NCBI GenBank assembly: GCA_964545715.1
Contig: CAZJHX010000029.1
Location: 6,215 to 70,214 of the forward strand
Reading direction: 5' to 3'
Length of the DNA: 64,000 nucleotides
DNA from: an uncultured Myxococcales bacterium
GTDB lineage: Bacteria; Myxococcota_A; UBA9042; GCA-2863065
Part shown: piece after piece, positions 3,061 to 63,918 of the stretch
How positions within the stretch are numbered: the stretch's first letter is position 1
How the letters are laid out: every line of letters begins with the position of its first letter
The notes under the pieces: model-generated
What the model was told of the DNA's origin: nothing
Databases searched by the model: none
What the model saw: the letters and a program-made list of their open reading frames with translations, nothing else
Translations under genes and position numbers: made by a program

Positions 3061-3162
3061 TCAGCTACTCCTGAAAACAACGCGAGAGGGGCCACACGAA
3101 CGCGCAGACCTTAGCATATAGGGCGTCATTTGTCCAGCCCTGATCGCGGCCCTGCAACGCGT

Positions 3163-4197
3163 TCAAGGACAGGCGAGGGCCACTGAGAAGCTGGCGGTAA
3201 AGCCCGCTTTAGTGTCGACGACAAGCTGGTAACTGCGACCCTCGACAGCGTCAAAGGTGACCGTTCCATCCTCGGCCGCGGCCACACATTTGGTCGGGTC
3301 GCAGCCGAAATCGGCGTCCAATACAAAGATGGCATCGTCGGCGCCGCCCACCGTCGCGCTGACGGCCCCCGTGACCGGCGACGTAAACAGGAACGCGCGC
3401 TCCGGGCCGGTGTATCCGCTCTGCCCGCAGCCGTAGTCGCTGACCTGCTGCGTCTGCCCCGGCGTGTCCAGCGCCACGAGCAGGTTGTCCCCGCACGAGA
3501 CGGACGCCTGCTCCTTGCACTGCGCGGCTTTGATCTCCAGATCGCCACAGTCCAGCGTCAGGTCGAACGTACCCTTCGCACCCAGATAGCCGTCCACGAT
3601 CAGGTAGGCCACATCACCGCTGGCGACCTCGAACTTGCCGCCCTCGGCCGGTCCCCACAGCAGACACTGGTCCAGGTCGCAGCCGTCCTCGGCCGCCGCC
3701 AGTACATGCAGGTCCAGCGTGTCGCCGCCGGTCTCCAGCAGGACCTTGGCTTTACCCTCGCCAGGCGCCGTGAATACGAACGCGATCTCGGGCCCCGGAT
3801 AGGAGAAGGTGCTGCACTGCGTCTGGTCGACCACCTGCCCCGTCGCCGACGCTTTGGTCCCCAGCGAAAACGACTCGCCGCACTCGATGGGTACGGCCTC
3901 CCCACAGGCGCCCGCCGCAACGGTCTCCAGCACGGGTGGCGGCGGCACATCCTCAAGCGGCGTCAGATCGGGTCCCGAATCGACGAAGACGTCCGGCGGC
4001 TCGACATCCGCGGGCCCGGCGTCCGGCGGCTCAACGTCCGGCGTCGGCGTGTCCTGAGGCTGCGCCGCATCCACGGTGTCGGCGGCGGACTCGGCGTCCT
4101 CCACCTCCATCCCGTCCACGGGCTCGACCACGTCGACCGGATCGGTCTGTTCGGACGTGCACGCCACCAACAGCAGGGCCACGAGCAGGCCCCTCAC
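3163..4197 (-). CDS. Secreted lipoprotein with two tandem Cys-containing beta-sandwich (pre-peptidase C-terminal/PPC-like) domains, 344 aa
   Basis: GTG start at 4197 overlapping moeA stop (GTGA). N-term MRGLLVALLLVACTSEQ is a lipoprotein signal (lipobox LLVAC). An acidic Pro-rich spacer (DVEPPDAGPADVEPPDVF) is followed by two homologous ~95-aa segments (CSTFSYPGPEIAFVFTAPGEGKAKVLLETGGDTLDLHVLAAAEDGCDLDQCLLWGP... and YGCGQSGYTGPERAFLFTSPVTGAVSATVGGADDAIFVLDADFGCDPTKCVAAAEDG...), each ending with LTLDC/VALAC. TGA stop at 3163..3165. Confidence 0.55.
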   Translation of the reverse strand: MRGLLVALLLVACTSEQTDPVDVVEPVDGMEVEDAESAADTVDAAQPQDTPTPDVEPPDAGPADVEPPDVFVDSGPDLTPLEDVPPPPVLETVAAGACGEAVPIECGESFSLGTKASATGQVVDQTQCSTFSYPGPEIAFVFTAPGEGKAKVLLETGGDTLDLHVLAAAEDGCDLDQCLLWGPAEGGKFEVASGDVAYLIVDGYLGAKGTFDLTLDCGDLEIKAAQCKEQASVSCGDNLLVALDTPGQTQQVSDYGCGQSGYTGPERAFLFTSPVTGAVSATVGGADDAIFVLDADFGCDPTKCVAAAEDGTVTFDAVEGRSYQLVVDTKAGFTASFSVALACP

Positions 4198-13100: not shown

Positions 13101-16100
13101 CCGCGGACTGGCGCTGCAACCGGACGCGGTGCCCGACCTGACCGCATGTCTGGACGATCCCGATGAGACCGTTCGCGCCACCGCGGCCGATGCGCTCACC
13201 GAGCCTGCCGACGCGACCCTGACGCGCCTTATCGCCTTGACGTCGACCGATCCGGACGCCGGTGTTCGGGCGGCGGCCGTGCGCGCCCTGGGTCGCAGCA
13301 AGGACGACGCCGTCCGGGCGCCGATTATGAGCGCGCTGGGTGACCGCGCCCCGCAGGTCCAGCGCGCGGCCGGTGAGTGTCTGCGCCCCGAGGACGCCGG
13401 CATCGCCCCGGTGCCGGCGTGGATCAACCACGTCTTCTGGGACCGCTTGATCGGTCTGGGCGAGCCGGTCATCGCCGCGCTCGTGCGCGTGGCGGCGCAG
13501 CCGGCGGAGGATGACGGCGGCAAGCGCGCGGGCGCCGTACGGGCGCTGGTCAGCGTGGCGACGGCGGGCGGTGATCAGAAGGTCAGCGCAGGCGCACGTG
13601 ATGAAGTCATCGACGCGCTGCGCGGCCATCTGGACGATAGGACGGTCGCGGTGCGGCACGCGGCCGCGCTGGGCCTGGGGGCGCTGCAGGACAAGGCGTC
13701 GATCGGGTCACTGGCCATGCGCTTTGGCCGAGCGGATGACGCCGACCGACGCGTGCTGGCACAGGCGCTGGCCATTTTGGAGGCGGCCGAGGCCCTGGCG
13801 GCGGCCGTGACCGACGAGGACTCCGAGGTCCGACTGGCGGCGGCGCGCGGCGTGACCGCCCCGAGCCACCTGAGCACGCTGCTGGCGGACGCGGTCGCCG
13901 ACGTGCGCGCGGCGGCGGCTGACCGCATGGCGGCGCTGGGCCTGTTGGACGAGCTGCAGCGGGCCGCGGGCGACCAACAGGCCATGGTGCGACAGGCGGC
14001 GGTGTGGGGTTTGGGCGGTGTCGGGGGCAAGGCGGAGAAGACGCTGCTGCCGATGCTGGCCGATGCGGACGCCCGGGTGCGCCTGGCCGCGGTCGACGCC
14101 TGTGCCCGTCTGGCGCTTGTGGGGTCCGCCGAGACGATCGCCGGGCTACTGACCACCGACACCGCCGACGGCGTCCGCATGGAGGCGGCGCGCGCGTTGG
14201 AGACGCTGGCTGCGGGACGCAAGCCCAAGAAAGGCGAGAGGGACCCGGCGGCGTGGGCGCTGGAGCTGGCGCTGGTCGATCAAGACGCCGATGTGGGTCG
14301 GGCGGCGACCGCGGTGATGCACGCGCTCGGCCTCTCGCCGGCGTCCACAACGGCCGCCATCGCCGACGCGGTGTTGTACGAGCGGTGGCGCAAGCTGCCC
14401 GAGATCGGGCTGGACATCGTGCCGTTCTGCGCGCGCATTCTGGCCGAGAAGAACCTGGATCCGCGCTCCGTAGGACGCCGGACCGGAGCGGCCGTCGCCC
14501 TGGGGGATCTGGAAGATGCCGCCGCATTTGACGCCCTGGCGCACGCGGCTGGTGATGGTGCGACCCGGGTGCGCGAGGCCGTCGCGTACGCTGTAGGCCG
14601 GCTTGGGGAGCCCCGCGCTGCCGAGGTGCTGGCCGATCTGATGACCGACCCCAACCCAGCGGTTCGCGAAGCGGTCTGCCGCGGTTGTCGACCGCAGGGT
14701 GGCGAGGCGGTCGTCGCGATCTTGTCCAGCCTGATGGAAGACGCCGAGCGGGCGGTCCGCATCGCTGCCTGTGTCGCGCTGGCCGGACCCAAGACCTTCG
14801 CGCTGGACAAGGTTGTGGAGATGCTCACCGACCGTGAGCCCGAGGTCCGAATCAAGGCTGCAGGGCTCATCGCGGAGATGGGCGACCCGGCGGGAATTCA
14901 GCCGCTGATCGACGCGCTGGGCGACGCGTACGCCCATGTTCGCTACCACGTGCGCAAGGCGCTGCTGGCGCTGGGTTGGACGCCGGTCGGGTACAAGCAC
15001 GACGCGGACGACAAGGGCTATGCGGTCTGGACCAGCCACGGCGAGTGGGACGGCCGCGCCGAGGGCCCGTCCGAGCGGCTGATGCTGGAGGCGGGGCTCA
15101 GCGATCCCAACCCGGTCGTGCGACGAACGGCGGCCGAGGGCCTGGCGGAGCTGGGCGACGTGAGCAGCGCGGAGGCGCTGACGGCCGTGCTGACCGACCC
15201 GGACCGAGACGTGCGGCGGGTTGCGGCGCGCGCGCTGGAGTCGCTGGCCGCGACTCCTCCGTCTCGCGAGCTGCTGGCGGTTCAGTTGGTGGAGATCGGA
15301 AAGATCGCGGAGGCGGTCAATCAGTGTGGCGACGCGGCCGTGGCGCCGCTCGTGCGCGCACTGGCCGAGACTGACGACGGACCGCGCGCAGCGGCCGCGT
15401 GGGGCATTGGGCTGCTCAGCCTGGCCGAGGCGGGCGACGCCGGGACCGACGCCCTGAGGGCCGCTCTTGTCGACGCCGGGCCGGGCGTGCGACAGCAGGC
15501 GACTGAGGCGTTGGGGCGGCTGGGCGCCCAGGTGGCGGCAGCCGATATCGCCGAACGCCTGGCGGACGATGACGCGTCTGTCAGAGGGGCGGCGACCACC
15601 GCGCTGCTGGCCCTGGGCACCGACGGCACGGAGCAGCTCTTCGGCGGTTTGAGCGCGGAGTCCTCGCTGGCCCGGGCAGCGGCGGCGGAAGGCGTCAGCG
15701 CGCTGAAGACCGGGGCCAAGACCGCCGAAGCGCGCCTGATCGAGCTGCTGAGCACTGACCCCGGACACGCGGTCCGGGCGGCGGCTGCAGCGGCGATCGC
15801 GGAGATCCCGACGGATCCGGCTGCCCAGGCGCTGGGCGCGGCGCTGGCGGCGGACGACTCCGAGGTCGTGCGCGCTCGCATCATCGCGGCGCTGGACGCC
15901 AACACGCAGGAGGGCGCGAGCGGCCTGAGCCCGGCTCACGACGCCGTTCAGCCGGCTCTCATCGGGGCTTTGAGCGACGAGTTCGGCTCGATTCGAGAGG
16001 CGGCCCTGAAGGTGCTGCAGGCCGTCGGCTGGACTCCCGAGGGCCCGGAGATCCAGGCAGCGATGCTGATCGCCAAGGGCGACTGGCGCGGTGTCGTCGC

Positions 16101-22100: not shown

Positions 22101-25100
22101 CGGCATCTCCGCGCCCGTCGAGGAGAAGCCGGCTCCGGCGAAGGACAAGCCGTCCAAGAAAGCTGAGAAGCCCGAGGTCGAGTCGGAGGCGGCAGAGGCA
22201 GAGGCGGTCCCGGTGGCGGAGCCGGATCCAGGCCCGGACGCGGCGACCCGGGCGGCGCTGGCGATGGTCGCGCTGGGCCGCATGGATGATGCCGGCGCGA
22301 TCGGCGTGCCGTCGGTGGGTCCGCTGGTACGCGCCGTCGCGGAGCACGATGAGTTTGAGCGACAGCTGGCCGCGCAGGCGCTGGGCACGCTGGCGCATCG
22401 TCTGTTGGATGGTGTCGGCAACGATGTCGATACGGCCACGCCGGTCCTGACCGAGATCGCCGCGGGTCTGGCGGTGGGCGTGACCGACGCCGCCGCCGCA
22501 GTGCGCCTGGCCAGCGCTCTGGCTTTGGGCCGCCTCACGCACGCGCAGCACGCGACCGATGCCCTTGTGACCGGCCTCGGGGACGGCGATGCGCTGGTGC
22601 GGCAACAGGCCGCAACGTCGCTGACCCAGCTCGGAGCGTCCGGGGGCGACGCCCTGAACGGCTGCCTGGACAGCGACGCGGCCTGGGTGCGCGAGGCGGC
22701 GCTGGGCGGCCTGCATTTGATAGCAGAGGTCGCCGACGCGGAGGCGGTCGCCCGCCTGCTGCGAGCGGATCCGGTCACCGCTGTGCGCGCAGCCGCAGCG
22801 ACCACGCTGGGCGCCTGCGGAGCGGGCGGCGCAGAGCACCTGACCGCAGCATTGAGCGCCGATCACGACCCCATCGTTCGGGCCACCGCGGCGGTCGCGC
22901 TGGCTGACTGTGTCGCGGACGATACCGGCGCAACGGCAGCGGCGCAGAAGGCGCTGATCGGCGCGCTGGGCGACCGGTTCGGACGAGTCCGTACCGCCGT
23001 ACTCCAGTCACTGCACGCTATCGGCTGGGAGCCGGAGGGCCCGATGGCCGAGGCGCTCGTCGCCCTGGCGCAGCAGGACTGGCAGACCCTGGGTACGTTG
23101 GGCGATGCCGCCATCCCGATGCTGGCGCCGGTAGTCGCCGAGCGGGGCGCGGACATGCCGAGCATGGACCGGCGCATTGGCGCGCTTCGAGCGCTGGCGC
23201 AGATCGGCGGTGGCCAGACCGCGACGGCGCTGGAGCAGGGCTTGAGCGACGAGCAGGCGCTGGTCCGGGTGGCGGCGGCCAAAGCGATCGCCTGGCGCCA
23301 TACACACGCCGCCCCATCCGCGCGTCCAACGCTGCGTGAGCTGCTGGTCTCGGACCCGATCTCGCTGGTTCGGGTCGCGGCGGCGACCGCGCTCGGCGCG
23401 CTGGGCGACAACGACGCCGTGGGCATCCTGCGCGCGGCGGCAGAGGGCGACCGGGATGTCACCGTGCGCTTCGCGGCGGCCGAGGCGCTGGCGTCACCCG
23501 CTATCCGCGAGACGTCTTTCTTGTGCGAGCGATTGGGCGATCCGGAGGCGGCGGCCCGTGCGGCGGCTGCCGAGGCGCTGGGCAAGAGCGACGACCCGAC
23601 AGCGATCGACCCGCTGATCGGCGCCCTCGGGGACGCGGTTGCGGTCGTCCGCGATGCGGCGCAGCGCGCCCTTGAGACGCTGGGCTGGATGCCGCTCGGC
23701 GTTCGCGCGGATGTCGCACACGGCAGCTACTCCCGCTGGGCCCTGCGCGGCGAGCTGGAGCAGCGCACGGGCGTCGGCGACGATCAAAGAAAGGCGCTGG
23801 CGGTGGACATGCGCTCGGACGACGCGGCGATCCGGCGCTGCGCTGTCGAGGCGTTGGGCCGGTGGAAGGACCCCGCGCAGGCCAAGCTGCTGGTGCCGCT
23901 GCTGGACGACTCCAGCCGGTTCGTACGCGCGGAGGCCGCCGTCTCACTGGCGCTGATCAATGCGCTGCCCACTGAGGGCCGCGATGGGGCGCTGGCCTGT
24001 GTCGCCCAGGGCCGGATGAGCGACGCAGCCGCGCTAGGTAGTGTCGCCGGCAAGGCCTTGTCGCGCGCGGTCGTGGAGCACGCCCTCGATGAGCGGGTCG
24101 CAGCGGCCGGCGCGCTGGCCTCGCTGACGGCAAAAGACGGACAGGAGGCGCTGGCTTCAGCCCTGGGAGACGAGGTCGCAGTCGTTCGGTTGACCGCGGC
24201 GGACGCGCTGGGAGCGCTGAAGGCCGGCGTGGACGCGCTGAGCGCCGCGCTGGTAGATCCGGCAGCCAATGTCCGACGAGCTACCGGGGCCGCCCTGGCC
24301 GCCTGCGAAAAGGCCGGACTCAAGGCGCTGATCGCTGCGTGCGGACACGACGATCCCAACGCACGCCAAGCAGCGTGTCACGGTCTGGGCGCCACGACGG
24401 GCGGCGGGCAAGCGCTGGCGTCGGTACTGACGGGCGATACCGTGCCGCGGGTGCGCCTGGCAGCGGCCGTGGCGCTGGGCCGGGCCGTGGATGCCAAGAC
24501 CGGGGCGCCGGCGTTGGTGAGCGCGCTGAACAACGACAGCGCCAGCGCCGTTCGCGAGGCGGCTGCGCGAGCACTGGCGGCCTACGACCAGAAGGCGGCG
24601 CAGGACCCGCTGATCGCGTCGCTCGGCGACCCGTCCACAACGGTCAGGCAGACCGCGCTGGACGCGCTGGCGACACTGGGTTGGACCCCCGAGGACGACC
24701 TGGCCGCCGCCGTAGTTGCGCTCGCGCAGGAGAGCTGGCGCGCGCTGGGTGCGCTGGGCGAGATCGCGGTCCCGATGCTGGCGCGGGTCGTCGAAGAGAC
24801 CGGAACCGACATCGGCGGCGTCGACCGCCGGGTGGGCGCGCTCTCGGCGCTGGCGCGGATTGGGACGCCCGCGGCCGTCGCGGCGGCCGAGGCCGGACTA
24901 AAGGACATCGCGGGTCCGGCGCTGGGAGAGGCCGCCCGAGCGATGGGGCGATGCCGAGACCATGTCAGCACCGACGCGCTGCCGCGATTGCGCGCGCTGC
25001 TGAGCGACCCGCGAACCAACGTGCGGGTGGAAGCGGCCGTCGCGCTGGGGCAAATCGGCGACGCGGACGCCGTCGCGGCGCTCTCGACCTTGTGCGTGGA

Positions 25101-28100
25101 CGATCCCGAGGTGGATGTGCGCTTCGCCGCGTCGACCGCGCTTGCGAGCCCACGCCTGAAGCAGACGGGCTTCCTGGTCGACCAGCTGTCGTCGGCGGAC
25201 GACGCGGTGCGGGCAGCCGCGTGCCACGCGCTCGGGGCCAGCGAAGATCCCGAGGTGATCGACCCGCTGATCGGCGCGCTGGGCGACGCGGTCGCCGGCG
25301 TACGCGCCGCAGCAACACGCGCGGTCGAGCAGCTGGGATGGACGCCCATCGGCGTGCGACCGACGCCGGAGCACGTCGGGTACTCCCGCTGGCTGCTGCG
25401 GTCGGAGCTGCGGAGCAAGCACGGCGACAAGCCCCAGGTGGAGTTGCTGGCGCTGGAGCTGAACGACCCGGATCCCGCCGCAAGGCGGTCGGCCCTGGAG
25501 GCGCTCGGGCGGGCGGGAGCGCACGAAACAGAGGCGCTGATCCTGGCGCTGCTGGACGATCCGAACCGGTACGTGCGCACCCAGGCAGCGCATGCGCTGG
25601 CCAGCCTGGACCGCGCGCCGGCCGTCCCTGCCGACTTCCTCGGGGTGGCGCCGGCGGCCGATGAGCCGGACAAGAAGAAGAAGAAGAAGAAGAAGAAGGG
25701 CAAGAAGGACGAGCCACCGCCCGAGGTGGCGGGACCGCCGCAGGCAGCCATCGACGCCGCGCTGAGCCTTGTCGCGACAGGCCGAATGAGCGAAGCCGCG
25801 CGCCTGGGGATCGTGGCGATCGGGCCGCTGGCCAGAGCGCTGGCGGAGCACACGAGCGACCAGCGCCTGAATGCGGCCGTCGCGCTGGGTGAGCTGGCGC
25901 TGCGGATCCGGACAGACGCGGGAGCGGACGGGGCGGAGGCAGCCGCGCCGGTCCTGTCAGAGATCGCAACTGGACTGCAGGCTGGGCTCGCAGACGACCA
26001 GCTTGAGGTGCGGGTCGCCACCGCCGCGGCGCTCGGCCAGGCAGGCCCGACGCCGGCCGCCACAAAGGCGCTGACCGGCGGATTGGCCGACGGCGAGCAG
26101 GCGGTGCGAGCGGAGAGCGCGCGTGCCCTGGCCGGCCTCGGCGGCGCAGGCGCCGAGGCGCTCACCGCATGCCTGGATGATGCGAACGCCCGTGTACGTG
26201 AGGCGGCGGTCCACGGGCTGGATGCTCAGGGCGGCGAGCTGGACGGCGCTCGGCTCACACAGCTGCTGGCGTCGGACGACAGCGCGCTGGTCCGGGTGGC
26301 TGCAGCCCAGGCGTTGGCGGGCCTACCGTCCGCGGCCGAGCCGCTGATCACGGCGCTGGCCGGGGATCCCCATGAGCTGGTGCGTGCTGCCGCCGCCACA
26401 TCGCTTGCCGCGCACAAAGCGGGAGACGCCGGACAAAACGCGCTGCTGGGCGCCCTGGCCGACCGCTATTCTGAGGTCCGAGAGGCCGCCCTGGGCGGGT
26501 TGGAGGCGACCGGCTGGCGCGCCGAGGGTCCGATCGCCGAGGCGATGGTGGCGCTGGCCGCTGAGAGCTGGCGCGCGCTGGCGAGCCTGGGAGAGACGGC
26601 GCTGCCGATGCTGGCGCAGGTCGTGGGGGAGCGCGGAGCAGAGGCTCCCGATGTCGAGCGCCGCATCGGGGCGCTGCGCGCGCTGGCGGAGATCGACGGC
26701 GGCGCGGCGATGGCGATCGTCGAGCGCGGCCTGTCGGATGAGCACGCCCGAGGCCGAGCGGCGGCGGCCAAGGGCATTGCGTGGCGTCATGCGGCCACGC
26801 CGGCGTCGGCATGTGGCGTGCTTCGGGAGCTGCTCTCCTCCGACTCCAACGCGGGTGTGCGGATCGCCGCGGCGACCGCGCTGGGCGCCCTGGGCGACAA
26901 AGAGGCTGTCGGGCTGCTGAGAACAGCCGCGGAGCACGATCGCGACCCGACGGTCCGCTTCGCTGCGGCCGAGGCGCTGGCATCACCCGCTATCAAAGAG
27001 ACGTCCTTCCTCATCGGCAGACTCAGCGACGCCGACGGCGCCGTCCGTGCAGCGGCGGCCGAGGCGCTGGGCAAGTCGGATGACGTCGAGGCGATCGACC
27101 CGCTGATCGGCGCGCTGGGCGACGCGGTCGCGATCGTGCGCGACGCGGCGCAGCGGTCGCTACAACAGCTTGGCTGGGTGCCGTTGGGCGTCTTCGGAGA
27201 CCTGGCGGACACCGGCTTCGCGCGCTGGGCCACGCGCGCCGAGGTCGCGGCGCGGACGGGCGTCACCGGCGACCAGAAGAAGGCGCTGACCGCAGACTTG
27301 AAGGACTCGCAGGCGCTGATCCGGCGTGCCGCTATCCAGGCGATGGGCCGCTGGAAGGACCCTGCGCTTTACGCGGTCGTTCTACCGCTGCTGGACGACG
27401 CGGATCATCACGTCCGAGCGGAGGCCGCGGAGGCGCTCCCGCTGTTGGGCGAGCCGCCGGAGAGCGGACGGGACGGCGCGCTGCGGCTGGTGGCGCTGGG
27501 ACGCATGGCAGAGGCGGCAGCTCTGGGCGACATCTCAGCGCCGGGTCTGGCGCGCGCGCTGCAGGAGAACCTGGAGCCCGAGCGGGCGGCCGCCGCGGAG
27601 GCATTGGGTGGCCTCTCGGCCAAGACGTCGACGGCCCCCCTGAGCGCTGCGCTGGCCGACGCGTCGTCGGCCGTTCGGCTGGCGGCGGCCCAGGCGCTGG
27701 GACAGTTGAAGACGGGAGTCGACGCCCTGGCCGGTGCGCTGGGTGACACCGGCGCCGACGTCCGGACAGCCGCTGCTCTGGCCCTTGCACAGTGCGGCAA
27801 GGACGGCGCACAGGCGCTGGCGAAGGGGTGTGCCGCGACGGACGCCGCGCTCAGAGCAGCCGCATGCGTCGGGTTGGGCGCTACCGCGGACGCGAAGCAC
27901 GCCGGCACGCTGGCGACCCGGCTCGGCGACGATACCGACAAGGCGGTTCGAGAGGCTGCCGCCAACGCGCTGGCCGCGTGCGTCGACGCCAAGACCGGCG
28001 CCGCCGCGCTTGCGAAGGCGTTGGATGCAGATGAGAGCGCCACCGTACGCAATGCGGCCGCGCGAGCGCTGGGCGCGTACCCGGCCAAGGCGGCGCAGGA

Positions 28101-31100
28101 GCCCCTGATCGCCGCGCTCAGCGACGGGTCACGGGGCGTGCGTCAGACCGTATTGGCCGCGCTGTCCGGGCTTGGCTGGGCGCCCGAGTCGGACGTGGCG
28201 GCGGCCGTCGTGGCGTTGGCGCGCGAAGACTGGCCGGCGCTGGGGCGCCTGGGCGACGCGGCGACGCCAATCCTGGCGCGCGTCGTGCGCGAGACCGGCA
28301 CGGACATCGGCAGCGTGGATCGCCGTGTGGGCGCGATCCAGGCGCTGGCCGCGGTGGGCGACAAAGCGGCCGCCGCGGCGGTCGAGCCGGGGTTGAGCGA
28401 CATCGCGGGGCCGGTGCTGGCAGCGGCGTCACGGGCTACCGGACGCTGTGCCGCGCATGCACCCAAATCGGCGCGTCCGACGCTGCGAGCGCTGCTGGAG
28501 GACGCACGCGAGGCGGTCCGGGTAGAGGCGGCGGTCGCGCTGGGCCAGCTGGGCGACGTCGACGCGGTGCCCGCGCTGTCCGAGCTGGCGCTGAACGACG
28601 AGAACGACCAGGTGCGACTGGCCGCGTCGACCGCGCTGGCCAGCAAGACGCTGAAGCAGACGGGCTTCCTGGTGGGGCAGCTGGCGTCAGCTGACGAAGA
28701 CGGCCGGGCAGCCGCGTGTCATGTGCTGGGCGACAGCGAGGACCCGGAGGTCATCGATCCGCTGATCGGGGCGCTGGGCGACGCGGTGGCACGAGTGCGC
28801 GCCGCCGCGACAAGTGCGCTGGAGAAGCTGGGTTGGACGCCGATCGGCGTTCGCGCCGACGTAGAAGACGCCGGGTACTCGCGCTGGCTGCTGCGGGCGG
28901 AGCTGCAGACGCTGCACGGCAAGGGCAAGCCACAGATCGACCTGCTGCGGCCACAGTTGAAGGCGCCGGACGCGCCGGCGAGGCGCTGCGCCATCGAGAC
29001 GATCGCGCGCGCTGCGATGGCAGCGGCAGCGCCCGACGTGACAGTGCTCCTGGACGACGCCCATTGGGCGGTACGGCGCGAGGCGGCGCAGGCCCTGATC
29101 GCCCTGGGAGCGCTGCCGGACGCGGCGCCGCACTTCTTCCTGGCCGATGCGCCGCCGGCGGCAGAGACAAAGCCCAAGAAGAAGGGCAAGAAGGGCACGA
29201 AGTCCGAGAAGCCGGCGGCGGACCCGGCGATCGACGCGATCACGCGGGACACCGTCCTGGCCCTGGTGGCGCTGAACCGCATGGACGAGGCGGCCGGTTA
29301 CGGCGTGGCGGCGATCGATGCCTTGACCCGCGCCGTTCGAGAGCCGCCCGCCGAAGAGCGCGAGAGCGCTGCGGTCGCATTGGGCGGCCTGGGTGCGAGG
29401 GCGCGGCGCGAGGCGCCCGAGGCGAGTGCACAGGTACTGTCGCGCGTGTCAGCAGGGCTGGCGCACAGCGCAGCCGACCGCGTCGTAGACGTGCGATTGG
29501 CCAGCGTCGGCGCGCTGGCCGCGCTGGGCGACGCGGCGGGTGTCGCGGACACCCTGACGCGCACGGTGGCGGATCTCGATCCCGCCGTCCGCGCACAGAG
29601 CGCCACAGCCCTGGCCGCGATGGGGGACAGCGGCGCCACCGCCCTTGGCGGCTGCCTGGCCGACGAGCGAGCGGTCGTCCGGGCTGCGGCTGTGCGCGGA
29701 CTGGGCGCCCTGCCCGCCGAGAGTATCGACGCGGCTGCGGTAGCCGCCGTGCTCAATGCCGACGTCAGCCCGACCGTACGCGCGGCCGCCGCAGCCACGC
29801 TCGGGGGCGTGGGCGCCTCACAGCTACAGGCCTTGTACAGCGCGCTTCAGCAGGATGCGGACGAGGCCGTCCGGGCGGCTGCTGCCGACGCCGTGGGCGC
29901 GGCTGCGGGAGCCGATCCGGGCGCGGTCGGAGAGGCGCAGCGGGCGCTGATCGCGGCGCTGGGCGACCGATACGCCGCGGTCCGAGAGGCGGCGCTCACT
30001 GCGCTGCATGCGATTGGCTGGCGCGCAGAGGGCCCCCTGGCGGAGGCGCTCGTGGCGCTGGCGCAGCAAGACTGGAAGGGCCTGGCCGCGATCGGCGCCC
30101 CGGCGATCCCGCTCCTGGCTCAGGTCGCCGCAGAGCGTGGAGCAGACGCGCCCAGCGTCCAGCGCCGGATCGGCGCATTGGAGGCCTTGGCGGCCGTCGG
30201 TGGGCCGGACACAGCGCCGGCGCTGGAGCGCTGCCTCGCAGACGAGCATGCGCTCGTGCGGGCAGCCGCGGCGCGGGGGATCGCGTACCGTCACGCCGAT
30301 GCGGCCGAGTCCGTCCGCCCGGTACTGCGCACGCTGCTCGTAGAAGATCCGCTGGCCACCGTGCGGGTCGGCGCCGCGATCGCGCTGGGTGCGCTGGGCG
30401 ATAAGGACGCGGTGGGGCTCCTGCGGACGGCTGCAGCCGATGATCCCGAGCCCACCGTGCGATTCGCGGCCGCGGAAGCGCTGGCGTCGCCGGCGATCAA
30501 GGAGACCAGCTTCCTGATCGAGCGGCTGACGGACGCGCAGGCGGAGACGCGGATGGCCGCCGCCGACGCGCTCGGCCGCAGCGACGACACGCGGGCGATC
30601 GACCCGCTGATCGCGGCGATGGGCGACGCGGACGCGGGTGTGCGCGACGCCGCCACTCGTGCCCTGGAGCAGCTGGGCTGGATGCCGCTTGGCGTACGCG
30701 GCGCGGTCGGCGACGTGGGTTACTCGCGCTGGGCCACGCGCGGAGAGACCGAGACGCGCACGGGCACGACGGACCAGAAGGCGGCGCTGACGAAGGACCT
30801 GAGCGATCCGTCCGCAGGCGTGCGGCGCTGCGCCGTGGAGGCCCTCGGGCGGTGGAAGGACGAGGCCCTGTTCGCGACGGTGCTTCCGATGCTGCACGAC
30901 GCGGACCGGCACGTCCGGACGGAGGCGGCCATCGCGCTGGCGCTGCTCGGCCAGGCCCCGACCGACGGGCGAGACGGCGCGCTTACGGCCGTCGCGTTGG
31001 GCCGCATGAGCGAGGCGGCGGCGCTGGGCGATGCGGCCGGACCGGCGCTGTCGCGTGCCGCGCTGGAGCACGATGACGACGAGCGGGTCGATGCGGTGAC

Positions 31101-43100: not shown

Positions 43101-46100
43101 GCCGCAGAGCGCGCTGCTGGCCGGCGAGCTGACCGCGACCGATCCGGGCGCGCGACGGTCGGCGCTGGAGGCGCTGGCCCGCATCGCGGATCCGTCGCAG
43201 GCCCAGTTGATCGTGCCGCTGCTGGACGACCCACATCGCCTGGTTCGCCGTGAGGCTGCAGAGACATTGACGGCGCTCGGGGCGCTGCCCGCGGCATCGG
43301 CGAGCGCAGCGACGGCGCTGGGACACATGGCCGACGCCGCTGCGCTGGGCGCGGACGCGATCGGCGCGCTCGTCCGCGCTCTGTGCGAGCAGACCGTAGT
43401 CGAGCGCCTGGATGCCGCGATGGCGCTGGGCTCGCTGGCGGGTCGCCTGCTGGCGTCCATGCCGCCGATGCCGGTCGCAGCGCCACCGGAGGCGCCGGCA
43501 GAAGATGCGGCGGAGACCGAGCCGCCCAAGAAAAAGAAGAAAGCCAAGAAGAAGCCCAAGAAGAAGCCCAAGAAGAAGGACACGGAAGCGAAGGCCCCAG
43601 AGGCCCCGCCGGAGCCGGAAGATCCCCACGCGGAGCAGCGAGCCGAGATCACCGCCGCGTTGGACGCTATCGCCGCAGGGCTGGCGCGCGGTCTGGCGGA
43701 TAGCGCCCCGGCCGTGCGTGCCGCGAGCGCATCCGCGCTGGGCGCGGTCGGACCGACCGGCGGCGCCGTCGCTGCGCTGGCAGGCGCCCTGGCAGACGTC
43801 GAGCAGATGGTCGCTTTTGCGGCCGGTGCGGCTCTGGGACGGCTCGACGAGGACGGCCGCAGCGCGCTGCGCACAGGCCTGGGCCACACCACCGAGACGG
43901 TTCGCGAGGCCGCGCTGGTCGGGCTGGCGAAGTCGGCCGTCGCGGAGGATATCGACCGCATCGCGGGCCTGCTGGCGTCGGATGAGGACGTGGGCGCGCG
44001 CGCTGCGGCGGCCACGACGCTGGGTGCCCTTGGACCGGCCACAGTGGACGCCCTGGCCACCGCGTTGGGCGGTGACTCGCACGAGCGCGTTCGGACAGCA
44101 GCCGCTGTGGCGCTGAGCCAGGCTGCGGTCGCACCTCCCGCGATCGTCGAGGCGCCCGCCGAAGAGTCGAGCGACGATAAGAAGGACGCCGAGGGAGCGC
44201 CCGCGGACGATTCGGTCGGGACGGCGCGCGACGCCCTGATCTCCGCGCTGGGCGACCGCTTCAGCGAGGTTCGCGAGGCGGCGGTGGCAGCGCTGGAGGC
44301 CATCGGCTGGCGCGCTGAGGGTCCGATCGCCGAGGCGCTCGTCGCGCTGGCGCAGCAGGACTGGACGGCGCTGGGCCGGCTGGGCGAGGCCGCCGTTCCC
44401 TTGCTGGCGCGCGTGACCCACGAGAGCGGCATCGACATCCCGAGTGTACAGCGCCGCGTCGGCGCGCTGACGGCGCTGGCCGAGATCGGCGGCACGGACG
44501 CGGTGGCGGCGATCGAGCACGGTCTCAGCGACGAGCACGGACTGGCGCGGGCACGGGCGACGCGCGGTATCGCTCGACAGCATGAGCTTGCGGCGCCGTC
44601 GGTTCACGGGACGCTGCGCGAGCTGTTGAGTGCGGATCCCGTGGCCCGGGTCCGCATGGGCGCAGCTGTAGCGCTGGGGACGCTGGGCGGTGGCGATTCG
44701 GTCGGAGTGCTGCGGTCGGCGGCTGAGCATGACTCGGACCCGCTGGTGCGGTTCGCGGCCGCGGAGGCCCTGGCGTCGCCCGGCATCCAGGAGACGTCGT
44801 TCTTGATCGAGCGACTGACCGATCCGGACGGTCAGGTGCGCGCTGCGGCAGCGATTGCGCTGGGACCCACACGGGACGTGGACGCCATCGACCCGCTGAT
44901 CGCCGCCATGGGCGATGCGGACGCCATGGTCCGGGATGCGGCACAGCGGGCGCTGGCGGAGCTGGGCTGGATGCCGCTGGGGCAGCGCGCGCACGTCGCA
45001 GACATCGGCTACAGCCGGTGGACGACGCGCGAGGAGCTCTCGAGCCGGACCTCGCAAACCGACCAGAAGGCGGCGCTGTCCGTCGAGCTGACGTCCGAGA
45101 ATGCGGCCGTCCGCCGCTGCGCGCTGGAGACCCTGGGGCGGTGGCGGGATCCGGCCCTGGCTTCGGGGGTGCTCACCCTACTGGATGACCCCGACCGGCA
45201 CGTCCGCACAGAAGCGGCGCAGACGCTGGGCCTGATGGACGCGACGCCCGCCGATGGCGCGAATGGAGCGCTGGCCCTGGTGGCGCTGGGCCGTATGCAG
45301 GAGGCCGCCGCGCTGGGCGATGTCGCCGGACCTGCCCTGTCCCGAGCCGCGCGTGAGCACTCGCCGGCGCAGCGATCGGGCGCGGCCGACTCGTTGGGGG
45401 CCTTGAGCGCCAAAGTCGCTGCCGCCGCACTGAGCGATGCAGTCGCGGACGAAGACGCGGTCGTGCGACTCAGCGCCGCGAGAGCGCTTGGCCGGGTTGG
45501 AGCCGGCGTGGACGCGCTGGCGCGGACGCTGGCGGACGCCGAGCTGGCGGTGCGGTACGAGGCGGCGCGGTCGCTGGCGGCATGCGGCAAGCCCGGCATC
45601 GGCGCTTTGTCCGCTGCATGCGATCACGAGCAGGCGGCAGCACGACAGGCCGCGTGCCTGGGCCTGGGCACAACAGGCGATCCAAAGGTGGCGCCCAGCC
45701 TGGCCGCGCGAGTGACTGGAGACTCGAGCGCAGATGTCCGTTCGGCAGCCGCGGCGGCGCTCGCGGATGCGGTGCATCCCAAGTCGGGCGGACCGGCGCT
45801 GATCACCGCGCTGGACCACGACGATGACAGCGGCGTCCGCTCGGCCGCCGCGCGATCGCTTCTGGCATACGGCCCCACAGTGGCGCAAAAGCCGCTGATC
45901 GCCGCGCTGGGTGACTCGTCACGCGAGGTGCGCCAGACCGCGCTGGACACGCTGGCCGAGCTCGGGTGGACACCGAAAGACGAGCTGGCCACAGCGGTCG
46001 TCGCGCTGGCGCAGGAGAACTGGGCCGCCATGGGCCGTCTCGGCGCGACCGCGGTGCCGATGCTGGCGCGGGTTGTGCGGGAGACCGGCAAGGACGGCGG

Positions 46101-59181: not shown

Positions 59182-62100
59182 GTGGCTGATCAGCCCCAAG
59201 CACTGCCCACCGAAGCCGCGGCGACGGCCCTCGCCGGCCGCCTGGCCGACGCGGATCCAGCCGTTCGCCGCGCTGCAGGGGACGCATTGGCCCTGTTTGG
59301 CGCCCACGGACTGGCGCGGCTGAAGGAGGGCCTGGCCCACGAGACGGCCGAGGCCCGCGAGGCCGCGGCCGGGGCGATCGGGCGCGGCGCGCTGAAGGAT
59401 GCGCTGGGCGACGTGGTGGCCGCGTTTACCGACGGTGCGGCGTCCGTGCGCCTGGCCGCTATCACGTCGGCGGCGCAGCTTTCGGGCGGTGGCGATGGCC
59501 TGAAGCAGGTCCTGGTCGATGACGACGACCCCGATGTGCGACGCGCCGCGGCTCACGCGCTCGCGACGGTGGCCCCCGACGGGACGGAGCCGGCGCTGAT
59601 CGCGGCGCTGGGCGATGAGGCGGTTCGTCAGACTGCGCTGGCTTCTCTGGATACGATCGGCTGGGTCCCCGACTCGGCGATTGGAGAGGCGATTCTGGCC
59701 ATGGCTCGGCGGGATTGGGCGGCGCTGGTGGCGCTGGGCGACACCTCGGTGCCGCTGCTTGAGCGGGCGCTGTCGGATCGCTCGCCGGACAAGGGCAGCG
59801 TGCTGCTGCGGGCATCGATGATCGAGGCGCTGGGCAAGATCGGCAGCGCGGACGCGACTCGCGCGGTCGAGGCCTGCCTGAACGACATCGGCGGACCGGC
59901 ACGGGCGCAGGCGACCCGGGAGATTGGCCGGCTGCACGCCCACGCGGCCAGGGGCACGGGTGCTGTGCTTCAGGCGTTGCTACGCGACGATCCGCAGGGG
60001 CGGGTGCGCGTCGGGGCCGCGACCGCGCTGGGCATGATGCGATACACGGCCGCCACCGACGACCTGCGCACGGCGGCAGAGGGCGACACCGAGCCGACGG
60101 TGCGACTGGCCGCCGCGGAGGCGCTAGCCGGCATCGGCGAGACCGGGCTGCTGGTTGACCAGCTGAAGAGCACGTCCCACGAGGTGCGACGCCGAGCGGC
60201 GGTCAAGCTGGGTGAGCTGGAAGCGGCCGAGGCGATCGACCCGCTGATCGGCGCTCTTGGCGACGCCTACGCGACGGTGCGAGCGGCTGCCTTTGAGGCG
60301 CTGCGGCGCATTGGCTGGACACCCGTGGGCGTGAAGCGCGACCCGGACGACCCACGCTATTCGCGTTGGATGACGCGGGCGGAGCAGGAGGCCCGAACCG
60401 GGATCACGGCGGCAGACCAGGGCAAGATGCTGGCCAGTGACCTGGCTGCCGACGATCCGCTGGTGCGGCAGGCGGCGCTGGAGGCGCTGGCGATGCGCCA
60501 CGATCCAAAGCTGGCGGCGCTGGCGACGCCGATGTTGGAGGATCCGGTTCTTCAGGTGCGGGAGGCAGCCGCCGAGACGCTCCAGACGCTGGACGCCGTC
60601 CCGACGGACGGGGCCGCCGGCGCAGCCTGGAAGATCGCCATGCGCGATATGCAGGGCGCGGCGATGATGGGCGAGGTGGCCAAGCCCGCGCTACTGCGTG
60701 TGCTGCGCGACAACGACTCTGACGACCGCGCAGAGGCGGTGCGGACGCTGGCGATGCTGGGCGGCGAGGACGCGGAGGATGCGCTGATCACCGCGTTGGT
60801 GGATCCCACGCCGTTCGTGCGGGTGAACGCGGCGCTGTCGCTGGGGATCGCAGGCGGGAAGCGCGCGGTGCCGGCCCTGGCGCCGCTGCTGGCCAACGAT
60901 CACTCCACGGTGCGCACCGCGGTGGGCCGCACGCTGTCGACGATGGGCAAGTCGGGACTCGAGGCGCTGGTCGCTGCGCTGTCACATGATGCGGACGTCG
61001 CTCGAGCGGCGGCGGCGCGCGCGCTGAAGACAGCAGGCGAGGACGCCAACGCAGCGGCGGGCAAGCTGATGGGCCTGTTGGCGGGCGATCTCAGCGAGAG
61101 CGTGAGGGTTGCCGCGGCGGAGGCGCTGGCCGGCATGCCGGGGCCGTACCCCACCCTGTCGGTGGCCGCGCTGCGGGACGACTCCTGGCGGGTGCGACAG
61201 AAAGCGGCGGCGGCGCTGGGCACGACGGCGCCGGAGGGAGCCGCCGAGGTGCTGGTGCGCTGTCTGGGCGACAGCTACTCAGGCGTGCGGACGGCGGCGC
61301 TCAAAGCGCTGGACCAGGTCGGCTGGAAGCCCGAGGGCGACGTCGGCGACGCGATGGTCCGACTGGCCCAGGAGGACTGGCGCGGGCTGGCGCGCGTCGG
61401 GCCGGCGGCGATCGACCTGCTCGGCCAGACCTTGATCGAGAAGGGGCCCGACAAGATCGCCGTGGAGCGGCGGGTGCGCGCTATCGAGACGGTCGAGGCG
61501 ATCGGATTGGAGCACTCGCCTCCCGGCCTGGCTGACGCGCTGCGACCGACGCTGGACGACGTCGCCGGGCCGGTGCGCGCCGTGGCTGCCCGTGCGTGCG
61601 GGCGGCTGGGCTTGACCGAGCTGGGGCCGCGGCTGCTGGAGATGGCGGCGGAGGATCCGCACGAATACGCCCAGGTCTGCGCGGCAGCGGGGCTGGGACG
61701 CGCCGGTAACGACACCATGGCCGAGAAGCTGCACGAGATCGCGACGACAGCGGTATCTCCCAATGTCCGCCTGGCAGCGTGTCGGGCGCTGGCAGGGCCC
61801 GCGGTCGGGGATATCGCGCTGCTGATCGTGGCGCTGCGCGCGCCCGAGCCGGAGGTGCGCCAGGCGGCCGCGAAGGACCTGGGAGAGATCGGCAACCAGC
61901 AGGCAATCGAGCCGCTGATCGACACGCTGGGGGACGCCGTGGCGTGGGTGCGGGCGGCGGCACGCACCTCCCTGGAGCAGCTCGGATGGCAGCCGGTTGG
62001 GATCAAGGCGGAAGGAGCGGCCGGCTATCGGCGGTGGCTCACACTGCGCGAGATTGGCGGAGACGGGGACAACGCGGTCGATCAGGGCGCGCTGTTGATC

Positions 62101-63918
62101 GAGGCGCTGACGCACGCGCTGCCGGAGGTGCGACGCGGGGCGCTGGAGGCGCTGGGGGACCGAGGAGAGGCCGCGTGCGCAAAGGCGATCCTACCGCTGT
62201 TGGACGACGTGGAGCAGATGGTGCGGCGCGAGGCCGGTCTGACGCTGCAGGCGTTGAAGGCGCTGCCGAAAAGTGGACACGCCAGTGCAGCCGCGTTGGT
62301 CGCCCTGGGACGGATGAGCGACGCGGTCGCGCTGGGTAAGGACGCTGTGCCCTCGCTGCTGCGCGCGCTGGCTGAGCACGGGCCGGAGGACAGGGAGGCC
62401 GTTGTCTCGGCGCTGGCCGGCACCGCGGACAAGGGCGCGATCACGGCGGTGGTGGGAGCGCTGGCGGATGACGTCGCGGCGGTCCGTGCGGCGGCGGTAG
62501 TGAGCTACGCGGACAGCGCAGGCGAGAAGGGCGTCGACAAGCTGGCCGCGCTGATCGCGGACTCGGACGACAGAGTGAGAGCGACCTGCGCAACGACGCT
62601 GGCCGGACTGGGCAAGAAGGGCGTGGAGGCGCTAAAGACCGCGCTGGCCGAGGGCGACGGGGATGTGCGCGTGGCCGTGATACGGGCCATCGGGGCGCTG
62701 GAGAAGCCGGGGCCAAAGCTGATCACCGCCATCGCCAAGCGCGTGCGGGCCGACACCGACGCCGACGTGCGGGTGGCCGCGATCGTCGTACTGACCGGCG
62801 CGATCGGCGTCAACGCGCTGGACGTACTGGCAGAGCGACTGCGTGAAGACGAGTCGTTCCTGGTGCGGGAGGCGGCGGCGACCGCGATCGGCGACGTCAA
62901 TCCCAAGGGCATCGCCGAGCTGCTGGTGCCCGCGCTGGGCGACGAATACAGCGAGGTGCGCGAAGCGGCGCTGACCGGGCTGGCGGCATCGGGCTGGGAG
63001 CCTCAGGACGGCGTTACAAGAGCGACGCTGGCCCTGGCGGCGCAGGACTTTGCGACGCTGGCCACGATCGGAGCGGACGCGGCGCCGCTGATCGTCCAGA
63101 TGCTGACGGAGAAGTCGAGCGCTCCCGACGCCCAGAAGAAGCGCGCCGAGGCGGTCCGGTGCCTGGGCAAGATAGGCGGCCCGGTCGCGGAGGGCGCGGT
63201 GCTGGAGGGGTTTGAAGACCCATCGGCGCGGGTGCGCGCGGCGGCGGCGGACGCGTCTGCGTGGCTTGGCCTGAAGGCGGCGGCGGATGCGCTGATCGCA
63301 GCGCTGGAGGGCGACAGCGACTACCGGGCGCGCGCTCGTGCGGCCAGCGCCATCGGGGTGCTGGGCCTCGTGGAGGCCGCGCCGGTGCTGTCCCTTGCGG
63401 CGAGCCAGGACGATGATCCGACGGTGCGCAGCGCCGCGGCGATCGCGCTTGCCGGACCGGGGATAGGTGACCTCGAGCGGCTGATCCATCAACTCGGTGA
63501 CAGCGACGCCAACGTGCGACAGGAGGCGGCCCTGGAGCTGGGCCGGCTGGGCAACCCACGCGCGCTCGACCCGCTGATCAGCGCGCTGTCCGACGCCTAC
63601 TCTCCCGTGCGCACCGCGGCCAAAGAGTCGCTGAGCAAGCTGGACTGGGTCCCGTTTGGCGCGCGACGCACGCCTCAGTCCAAGGGCTATGACCGGTGGG
63701 TCCTGCGCCAGGAGCTCCTGCCCAAGGACGAGACGACGCCTCAATTGGACGTACTGATCGGCGCCATCAACCTGCCGGACCCCACCTTGCGGCGGGCGGT
63801 GGCCGAGGCCTTCGGGTTGCGAGGCGACAAGTCCGCGGCCAAGCACCTCAAGCAGATGCTCAAGGACGCCGACCCCGCGGTCATCGAGGTCGCCAAGGCC
63901 GCACTCGACTCTCTATAG
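59182..63918 (+). CDS. HEAT-repeat protein, 1,578 aa, continuing the same repeat array (more diverged terminal units)
   Basis: GTG at 59182 directly abuts TAA of the giant ORF, in the same reading frame. A purine-rich stretch (aagggg aag aag aag) 4-18 nt upstream could act as SD. Translation is again D-P-x-x-x-V-R-x-A-A HEAT units. Contains the array signatures at unchanged spacing (…IDPLIGALGDAYATVRAAAFEALRRIGWTPVGVKRDPDDPRYSRWMTRAEQEARTG at about 60250-60400; …GYRRW at 62023; …GYDRW at 63685). TAG stop at 63916..63918. Confidence 0.7.
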   Translation: MADQPQALPTEAAATALAGRLADADPAVRRAAGDALALFGAHGLARLKEGLAHETAEAREAAAGAIGRGALKDALGDVVAAFTDGAASVRLAAITSAAQLSGGGDGLKQVLVDDDDPDVRRAAAHALATVAPDGTEPALIAALGDEAVRQTALASLDTIGWVPDSAIGEAILAMARRDWAALVALGDTSVPLLERALSDRSPDKGSVLLRASMIEALGKIGSADATRAVEACLNDIGGPARAQATREIGRLHAHAARGTGAVLQALLRDDPQGRVRVGAATALGMMRYTAATDDLRTAAEGDTEPTVRLAAAEALAGIGETGLLVDQLKSTSHEVRRRAAVKLGELEAAEAIDPLIGALGDAYATVRAAAFEALRRIGWTPVGVKRDPDDPRYSRWMTRAEQEARTGITAADQGKMLASDLAADDPLVRQAALEALAMRHDPKLAALATPMLEDPVLQVREAAAETLQTLDAVPTDGAAGAAWKIAMRDMQGAAMMGEVAKPALLRVLRDNDSDDRAEAVRTLAMLGGEDAEDALITALVDPTPFVRVNAALSLGIAGGKRAVPALAPLLANDHSTVRTAVGRTLSTMGKSGLEALVAALSHDADVARAAAARALKTAGEDANAAAGKLMGLLAGDLSESVRVAAAEALAGMPGPYPTLSVAALRDDSWRVRQKAAAALGTTAPEGAAEVLVRCLGDSYSGVRTAALKALDQVGWKPEGDVGDAMVRLAQEDWRGLARVGPAAIDLLGQTLIEKGPDKIAVERRVRAIETVEAIGLEHSPPGLADALRPTLDDVAGPVRAVAARACGRLGLTELGPRLLEMAAEDPHEYAQVCAAAGLGRAGNDTMAEKLHEIATTAVSPNVRLAACRALAGPAVGDIALLIVALRAPEPEVRQAAAKDLGEIGNQQAIEPLIDTLGDAVAWVRAAARTSLEQLGWQPVGIKAEGAAGYRRWLTLREIGGDGDNAVDQGALLIEALTHALPEVRRGALEALGDRGEAACAKAILPLLDDVEQMVRREAGLTLQALKALPKSGHASAAALVALGRMSDAVALGKDAVPSLLRALAEHGPEDREAVVSALAGTADKGAITAVVGALADDVAAVRAAAVVSYADSAGEKGVDKLAALIADSDDRVRATCATTLAGLGKKGVEALKTALAEGDGDVRVAVIRAIGALEKPGPKLITAIAKRVRADTDADVRVAAIVVLTGAIGVNALDVLAERLREDESFLVREAAATAIGDVNPKGIAELLVPALGDEYSEVREAALTGLAASGWEPQDGVTRATLALAAQDFATLATIGADAAPLIVQMLTEKSSAPDAQKKRAEAVRCLGKIGGPVAEGAVLEGFEDPSARVRAAAADASAWLGLKAAADALIAALEGDSDYRARARAASAIGVLGLVEAAPVLSLAASQDDDPTVRSAAAIALAGPGIGDLERLIHQLGDSDANVRQEAALELGRLGNPRALDPLISALSDAYSPVRTAAKESLSKLDWVPFGARRTPQSKGYDRWVLRQELLPKDETTPQLDVLIGAINLPDPTLRRAVAEAFGLRGDKSAAKHLKQMLKDADPAVIEVAKAALDSL

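Follow-up and report, generated by a model that had tools for sequence, protein, structure and literature searches.

A 17,353-residue HEAT-repeat protein of an uncultured Myxococcales bacterium with a quantised ~550-residue unit and a two-tier super-repeat

Bacterial genes encoding more than 10,000 residues are known from uncultured lineages, among them the Omnitrophota 'Archaeovorins', and HEAT_2 repeats are frequent in their products (10.1101/2023.11.21.568195; 10.64898/2026.06.07.730766). Myxococcota belong to the phyla rich in very large genes, and the Omnitrophota giants are predicted to be membrane-anchored and to combine many enzymatic domains with HEAT repeats found only in predicted extracellular regions (10.1101/2023.11.21.568195). 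Here we describe a 64,000-nucleotide (nt) stretch from an uncultured Myxococcales bacterium (contig CAZJHX010000029.1, positions 6,215 to 70,214 of the forward strand; 'the window'), which carries a giant open reading frame (ORF) of 17,353 residues followed by a smaller HEAT paralogue, ORF2. The giant protein lacks the marks of an Archaeovorin, having neither a transmembrane-like segment nor a non-HEAT domain. Its 31-residue helical hairpin is that of the alphaRep/HEAT_PBS-type proteins (CpcE/CpcF, NblB), with alphaRep giving the best sequence matches among solved structures, but those proteins measure 150-500 residues, or at most a few thousand, and are without the beta-hairpin junction, the ~550-residue quantum and the super-repeat of alternating A and B units described below. 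The building block of the giant is ordinary; its size, junction, quantised unit and A/B super-repeat are not.

Based on the periodicities of the protein, the comparison of its units and the junction spacings in relatives, we are highly confident of the architectural and evolutionary account of a hierarchical HEAT solenoid given here. We propose three nested levels, i.e. a 31-residue repeat of the alphaRep/HEAT_PBS type, a unit of ~550 residues, and an A+B pair of units that would have been tandemly amplified about ten times. HEAT-type families (Pfam HEAT_2 PF13646, HEAT PF02985 and HEAT_PBS PF03130 were considered) are the sole Pfam matches in every segment of the giant ORF scanned, and HEAT_2 reaches 219-482 bits in each segment (Pfam cut-off 27.7 bits). 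The elements of the architecture are located as follows.

7120-59181, forward strand: giant ORF, 17,353 residues over 52 kb, ending in a TAA stop (ORF scan, Pfam)
59182-63918, forward strand: ORF2 (P0002), a 1,578-residue HEAT paralogue with a GTG start and three junctions, spaced 557 and 554 residues
7120-15015, forward strand: N-terminal 2,632 residues of the giant, HEAT repeats with the 31-residue period only
8635-8688, forward strand: extra, more degenerate beta-hairpin-type junction, SWLPVGLPSGAPGAGFSRW, found by the junction model and absent from the earlier list
15016-21834, forward strand: units 1-4 (565, 552, 594 and 562 residues), divergent and clearly of neither class
21835-56865, forward strand: two-tier array of ten A+B pairs (units 5-24), with pair lengths of 1,131-1,206 residues
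21835-46662, forward strand: core of seven A+B pairs (units 5-18), with a Lys-rich linker in A and C-x11-C-x11-C in B
28873-30717, forward strand: example A unit, unit 9, 615 residues
30718-32373, forward strand: example B unit, unit 10, 552 residues
30676-30732, forward strand: example unit junction, GWMPLGVRGAVGDVGYSRW, whose equivalents in units 7-8 are predicted to be two-stranded beta-hairpins
31675-31734, forward strand: example helical mid-junction, GWxP...EDW

The 29 tryptophan anchors that a sequence-only reading had used as a ruler for this array all lie in frame 0 of their ORF and follow G-[YFV]-x-[RQV]-W or, in two cases, a variant displaced by one residue (GSYSRW at 23722, PRYSRW at 60352). 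The strict degenerate pattern GGNTAYWSNMGNTGG has 16 matches where chance alone would give 0.01, and a junction hidden Markov model (HMM) trained on the 29 sites finds just these and one more (27 junctions in the giant ORF, three in ORF2), the additional one at residues ~506-523 of the giant, 2,114 residues upstream of the first anchor listed before. The anchor intervals are as originally given, nine of 1656-1665 nt, five of these exactly 1656, with intervening ones of 1713-1962 nt; the final interval, 1662 nt, is a tenth within the narrow range. Residue autocorrelation peaks at 31, 62 and 92, at ~553, at 1133-1206 and at 2331-2393 residues, and only the 31-residue period appears over 7120-15015, as expected from the earlier description of that region as HEAT units without a super-repeat. 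Tandem Repeats Finder detected only linker microsatellites and not the array, to which it is blind because of the period of more than 500 nt and an identity of ~65%.

Within each unit, a beta-hairpin junction, GWxPxG...G-Y-S-R-W, would be followed by some 17-18 helical hairpins, two helical spacers among them. An AlphaFold2 model of units 7 and 8, i.e. one A+B pair, computed from an alignment of 14 paralogous pairs, has a mean predicted local distance difference test (pLDDT) score of 88 and shows paired helices throughout, about 36 in the A and 34 in the B unit. The helix-turn-helix period of ~31 residues is found alike in the autocorrelation, in these paired helices and in the alphaRep proteins that head the sequence matches in the Protein Data Bank (PDB). 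Short beta strands are modelled at all three anchors of units 7-8, where PxGVR pairs with YSRW, so that the 'Trp anchor' is predicted to be a beta-hairpin junction between solenoid segments. The second landmark, the helical mid-junction GWxP(E/D)...(E/Q)DW, measures exactly 18 residues from GW to DW in all 28 units. From its DW to the next anchor Trp there are 218 residues in all nine B units and 219 in 15 others, giving a C-terminal block of 218-219 residues in 24 of the 28, with 213-228 residues in the remaining four; the stretch from the anchor to the mid-junction carries all of the length variation (315-319 residues in B, 330 in unit 22; 324-417 in A).

All-against-all alignment of the 28 units separates two classes. 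The even-numbered units 6 to 22 form class B (552-555 residues, with unit 22 at 566), which are 55-64% identical to each other at the protein level, and the odd-numbered units 5 to 23 form class A (570-654 residues), with 45-60% identity; A and B units share 42-50%. Unit 24 is B-like; units 1-4 and 25-28 have diverged further and cannot be clearly assigned to a class. The alternation had been described as blurring after about 50 kb, which is correct for the unit lengths; the sequence classes keep alternating to unit 24, at 56.8 kb, and thus span 21835-56865. At the nucleotide level B copies are 62-68% and A copies 56-64% identical, with the best 150-nt windows reaching 80-86%, in accordance with the 80-85% previously stated for the best-conserved blocks. 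Synonymous sites are saturated among copies (proportion of synonymous differences, pS, ~0.54), and together with the protein identity of ~60% this bears out the view that the copies are old. The constant length of the B units can therefore not be put down to near-identical duplicates, the B copies being only 55-64% identical.

The array appears to have grown by tandem duplication of whole A+B pairs. This is suggested by two patterns in the sequences: the identity matrix of the A units correlates with that of the B units if every A is matched to the next B along the protein (r = 0.64, permutation p = 0.015), more weakly with the opposite pairing (r = 0.39, p = 0.10), and every A unit that contains a Lys-rich linker (seven, the odd-numbered units 5-17) is followed by a B unit with C-x11-C-x11-C (the even-numbered units 6-18). 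The Cys triad was found nowhere else, neither in A units, the rest of the giant protein or ORF2 nor in the relatives examined. Its Cys codons lie, for example, at 31294/31330/31366 in unit 10, at 24304/24340/24376 and at 27793/27829/27865, and the triad might bind a metal, have a redox role or just serve core packing. At the orthologous locus L004, the final two units pair one-to-one with units 24 and 25 as their orthologues (53-54% identity), and further upstream lie one B-like and one A-like unit; the split into A and B hence came before these two organisms diverged.

The ~550-residue unit is not confined to the window. Running the junction HMM on related sequences gave the following spacings, in residues.

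L004, orthologous locus (ENA ERZ24794647), a truncated giant gene of at least 7,799 residues followed by a 1,591-residue ORF2 orthologue: 552, 559, 550, 553 and 556
L088, a relative at 43% identity: 562, 555, 559, 555 and 555
L008, an ORF of at least 4,861 residues in the Myxococcota metagenome-assembled genome (MAG) BF4_123: 552, 547, 547, 551, 548, 547 and 553
P0005, a partial protein from a Myxococcota MAG: 555 and 551
P0006: 548 and 550
P0063, 4,673 residues: 544, 546, 565 and 550, plus two longer intervals
ORF2 orthologues: 554-569
L009, an ORF of at least 5,200 residues in Myxococcales MAG_44: 587 and 590

Across relatives the spacings thus fall mostly at 544-567 residues (up to 569 in ORF2 orthologues), those of L009 and two in P0063 being longer, and the junction GWxPxG...[YF]xxW recurs every ~550 residues in P0063, P0006, P0009, P0005, L004, L008, L009 and L088. 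L008 is without the linker-type length alternation, and its best tblastn segment is only ~31% identical to the window protein. Few such proteins were found: a search of 1.84 billion representatives with the junction profile returned 22,332 matches at E ≤ 1e-10, mostly generic HEAT proteins, with the hairpin in only a few (P0063, P0006, P0009, P0011 and P0007); a metagenome scan yielded at least one true relative, L088, among the matches listed, and a genome scan two, L008 and L009. The helical mid-junction, as GWxP...W...G..AV.PL, is common in generic HEAT proteins of many phyla. Hairpin carriers with an organism label (P0005-P0009, P0011, L008, L009) all come from Myxococcota, Myxococcales or 'Deltaproteobacteria' MAGs. 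We conclude that the HEAT architecture with beta-hairpin junctions is real, old and common to a few uncultured Myxococcota. One fragment is labelled 'HEAT repeat domain-containing protein' at NCBI, and literature searches found no description of this beta-hairpin-junction family. At 17,353 residues the window protein is far above the other members found, the next being truncated fragments of at least 7,799 residues or less. Membership of the phycobilin lyase and NblB families (NCBIfam CpcE, CpcF, CpeY and NblB) was rejected, with single units scoring at best 52-56 bits against cut-offs of 300-330 and the whole 1,578-residue ORF2 170 bits against 300 for NblB.

How strictly length is kept was quantified as gap events per 100 amino-acid substitutions in pairwise global alignments. 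The value is 0.5 for B units and 0.03 for their last 290 residues, compared with 2.65 for A units and 1.25 for their last 290 residues, and 3.0-3.4 for units 1-4 and units 24-28. Gaps in the A alignment cluster in three loops, columns 85-159 (the Pro/Glu/Lys-rich linker of units 5-15), 213-287 (the site of unit 17's own poly-Lys linker) and 448-477 (an Ala/acidic loop). The initial claim that indels have been excluded from one module type is therefore right in that B units are indel-poor, and too narrow in restricting the lock to B, as the C-terminal block is constant in both classes and a unit of the ORF2 orthologues is equally indel-poor (0.33 for the first unit; 1.18 for the second). Selection on solenoid length is a fair conclusion, since indels are rare in B at an old divergence. 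Judged from these alignments and spacings, the low-indel length of ~550 residues is a family-wide property of the unit and nothing special to B. As the unit recurs across the family, B keeps the ancestral unit length and A is derived, and A differs simply by its disordered, slippage-prone linkers. Mechanistically, purifying selection, reflecting the continuous packing of short-loop HEAT repeats, would purge indels from the solenoid, with its greatest effect in the final ~237 residues of each unit; A units would have acquired disordered linkers rich in Pro, Glu and Lys within surface loops of the N-terminal sub-block, where replication slippage would alter the length of microsatellite-like sequences. 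The locus can be regarded as a natural experiment on solenoid indels, which are tolerated freely in loops encoded by microsatellites and hardly ever within packed repeats.

An alternative, in line with the sequence-only reading, is a molecular ruler or lattice, in which the exact residue count of B would be selected so that units keep register with one another or with some periodic partner. The constancy of B at 552-555 residues despite ~60% identity, the C-terminal block of 218 or 219 residues almost without exception, the unit length kept in distant relatives and the recurrence of Lys-rich linkers every 1,166-1,236 residues would all fit. We nevertheless consider it unlikely, because the lock is common to both module types and to the ORF2 orthologues, and the orthologous units 24 and 25 have 561 and 548 residues where their L004 counterparts have 553 and 556; no periodic partner is known, and ordinary packing in a short-loop solenoid suffices for the data.

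The acidic solenoid carries seven internal Lys-rich segments and a C-terminal KAKP tail. The giant protein (1.755 MDa, 24% Ala, net charge -522) contains 2.7% Lys against 7.5% Arg, and Lys is scarce outside these segments.

22111-22185, forward strand: Lys/Pro-rich linker of unit 5
25630-25746, forward strand: poly-Lys linker of unit 7, with (AAG)9 at 25672-25698, disordered in the AlphaFold2 model
29134-29238, forward strand: Lys-rich linker of unit 9
32632-32742, forward strand: Lys/Thr-rich linker of unit 11, with (CAAGAC)5.5 at 32682
36163-36276, forward strand: Pro/Glu/Lys-rich linker of unit 13
39781-39885, forward strand: Lys-rich linker of unit 15
43489-43620, forward strand: poly-Lys linker of unit 17, with the 12-nt repeat (AAGAAGAAGCCC)3.8 at 43534
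59029-59178, forward strand: C-terminal KAKP tail, with a 24-nt tandem repeat in 4.9 copies (59051-59172)

At the DNA level, Tandem Repeats Finder resolves the majority of these segments into short tandem repeats, and residues 106-132 of the AlphaFold2 model, the poly-Lys linker, are predicted to be disordered (pLDDT <50). Unit 17 has no linker at the usual loop and carries its poly-Lys stretch ~130 residues downstream of that site, in a loop that none of the other six linkers occupies, which points to an independent insertion or a relocation. The window tail is one 24-nt unit shorter than that of three other assemblies of the locus, and since this is the single indel between assemblies, it is direct evidence of length change by slippage in a linker. 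The missing unit reflects either length polymorphism within the population or a discrepancy between assemblies. L004 and L009 likewise end in a polybasic tail, while P0063 ends in a long acidic Glu/Ala/Pro-rich one, so that tail charge is not uniform across the wider family. We also observe a motif, P-x-x-F-[FLI]-G, ahead of the Lys-rich part in four of the six same-site linkers (units 5, 7, 13 and 15; e.g. PDGFFGVP in unit 13, ~36.1 kb, and PDGLFGMP in unit 15, ~39.7 kb), with degenerate versions in unit 9 (HFFLA) and unit 11 (TFSGP). FG and GLFG motifs bind HEAT-repeat transport receptors in eukaryotes, and we take the linker motif to recall these.

As to function, the very acidic protein probably resides in the cytoplasm. 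By analogy with the tails of bacterial DNA-binding proteins, the seven polybasic tethers and the polybasic tail could bind a polyanion, with DNA as the leading candidate, or alternatively the protein's own acidic surface; either way the result would be a multivalent scaffold. The polyanion-tethered version is tentative, and we regard it as possible rather than probable. If it is correct, the protein would add a new kind of structural element to those known inside bacterial cells. Still more doubtful is an intracellular structural polymer, i.e. a quantised alpha-solenoid on the half-micron scale with ~550-residue spacers and polybasic tethers with FG-like motifs reaching to the nucleoid or to neighbouring molecules, which, if true, would be a prokaryotic analogue of the eukaryotic HEAT scaffolds that organise chromatin or FG-repeat networks.

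It is quite improbable that the giant is instead secreted or displayed at the cell surface as an adhesin or predation factor, like most other bacterial giant proteins. The precedent of the Omnitrophota giants (10.1101/2023.11.21.568195) and a gene for a Phage_base_V protein ~4 kb upstream would speak for such a role. The giant itself has no signal peptide or transmembrane-like segment (maximum 19-residue hydropathy 1.95, none above 2.0), and Pfam and NCBIfam scans found in it no secretion-associated, adhesin or enzymatic domain. An adhesin of the RTX/type 1 secretion kind, for which a secretion signal and repeats of the Ig-like, cadherin-like or RTX type would be expected, was rejected, as only HEAT families are detected and the C-terminus is the KAKP tail. 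The upstream genes, which encode MoeA, a putative lipoprotein, the Phage_base_V protein, a MatE transporter and one TIGR04551-like protein (a weak match, far below threshold), are all oriented opposite to the giant gene, and the genes downstream are not the same at the window locus and at L004.

2125-3060, reverse strand: Phage_base_V protein (gp5/VgrG-type OB-fold), 311 residues

No link between this gene and the giant gene was seen in the window. The G+C content falls to 62% at 2001-4000, around the Phage_base_V gene, with 67-74% on either side, and this stretch may be a contractile-injection or prophage remnant. Across the giant gene the G+C content is ~73%, and the long ORFs opposite it are the usual by-product of high G+C.

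An assembly artefact, whether a chimera or a repeat collapsed or expanded with a miscounted unit number in a short-read metagenome, can be given very little credence. Three other assemblies match the window at 99.8% identity, namely JGI Ga0115650_1000723 (78.6 kb, metagenome 3300008954), a JGI contig from 3300007512 and the independent ENA ERZ23498677 scaffold_687 (76.6 kb). The window differs from them by 1-4 single-nucleotide polymorphisms over the 14.8 kb compared and by the one indel seen there among the four assemblies, the 24-nt AAGGCCAAGCCCAAGGCAAAACCA, encoding KAKPKAKP, at 59068 in the C-terminal tail. Ga0115650_1000723 and scaffold_687 both carry a gene call of 17,361 residues; as 17,361 - 8 = 17,353, the total gene lengths agree and leave little room for another unit count. 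The longest exact string common to any two units is 39 nt, and with units 56-68% identical short reads can be placed uniquely; the frame moreover stays open over 52 kb. A lower-coverage ENA assembly of the same organism (L168) does end at window position 15019, exactly at the first anchor where the super-repeat begins, and another contig (L003) starts at 56406, inside the array. Divergent super-repeats can evidently be assembled from short reads and yet break some assemblies exactly at the array edge. On the strength of the short shared strings, the matching gene lengths and the single tail indel, assembly collapse was rejected. Least credible of all is the idea that length conservation is trivial, the copies being recent duplicates or homogenised by gene conversion: the B copies do resemble each other slightly more than the B-like unit of L004, but the all-against-all identities, the nucleotide divergence, the saturated synonymous sites and the lack of long identical tracts led us to reject it.

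The organisation of the two genes deserves separate mention. The TAA of the giant ORF abuts the GTG of ORF2 (59179-59184), with a purine-rich AAGGGGAAG just upstream, and relatives preserve the gene order, with 24 nt between the two ORFs in L004 and an overlap of their frames in L088. This arrangement suggests translational coupling of the two ORFs. Read-through fusing them was rejected, in view of the intervening stop in four of four assemblies, the gap in L004 and the frame overlap in L088. An ORF2 orthologue, P0001, opens with a Lys-rich stretch and then a Pro/Glu-rich segment, and together with the polybasic tails of L004 and L009 this makes it appear that the boundary of the two genes lies in what is effectively a linker.

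Taken together, the best explanation, which we consider probable, is a genuine two-gene, all-HEAT locus in which B retains the ancestral unit length, A is derived and the product would act as a scaffold. Several points weigh against it. The B copies of the window are 56-64% identical to each other and 51-54% to the B-like unit of L004, so that part of the amplification, or some homogenisation, is lineage-specific; some concerted evolution or late amplification may have taken place and is, from the sequences, inseparable from an ancient array. The ratios of non-synonymous to synonymous substitution rates (dN/dS), 0.36 for B and 0.44 for A, are unreliable because dS is saturated, and show only that the units do not drift freely. 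The predicted template modelling score of the AlphaFold2 model is 0.45, which makes its long-range geometry uncertain. Internal Lys-rich linkers were seen only in the window, the sequences of the relatives being truncated, and the case for binding of a polyanion or DNA comes only from composition and the analogy to histone-H1-like tails. Beyond the paralogue, no conserved neighbour gene was seen at the window locus and those of relatives.

Compared with known HEAT proteins, the modelled pair resembles CAND1, the karyopherin-beta family, mTOR and the PP2A A subunit, which are the best Foldseek matches in the PDB (probability 1.0, more than 1,100 aligned columns) and are likewise elongated solenoid scaffolds, but with TM-scores of only ~0.2 and 12-15% identity; the search against the PDB returned generic HEAT solenoids only and no specific relative. 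The eukaryotic HEAT solenoids differ in their longer, irregular repeats, are ~10-30 times smaller and are not built of duplicated super-units. Nebulin and titin, the classical setting of the 'molecular ruler', are giant proteins in which a short repeat stands within a higher-order super-repeat, and the super-repeat of nebulin matches the periodicity of a known partner filament. Their folds and organisms are unrelated to ours and no partner filament is known for the window giant, which makes the comparison an analogy only. AlgP, mycobacterial HupB and chlamydial Hc1 are bacterial DNA-binding proteins with histone-H1-like Lys/Ala/Pro tails, which the KAKPKAKP tail and the Lys-rich linkers resemble in composition and repeat character; in the giant protein the basic stretches are small insertions within a very large acidic solenoid, and DNA binding is putative. 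Unlike the giant proteins of the papers cited above, the protein described here is a pure HEAT solenoid with no enzymatic, adhesin or membrane module, and its three nested periodicities, beta-hairpin junction and ~550-residue quantum constitute a previously undescribed HEAT construction.

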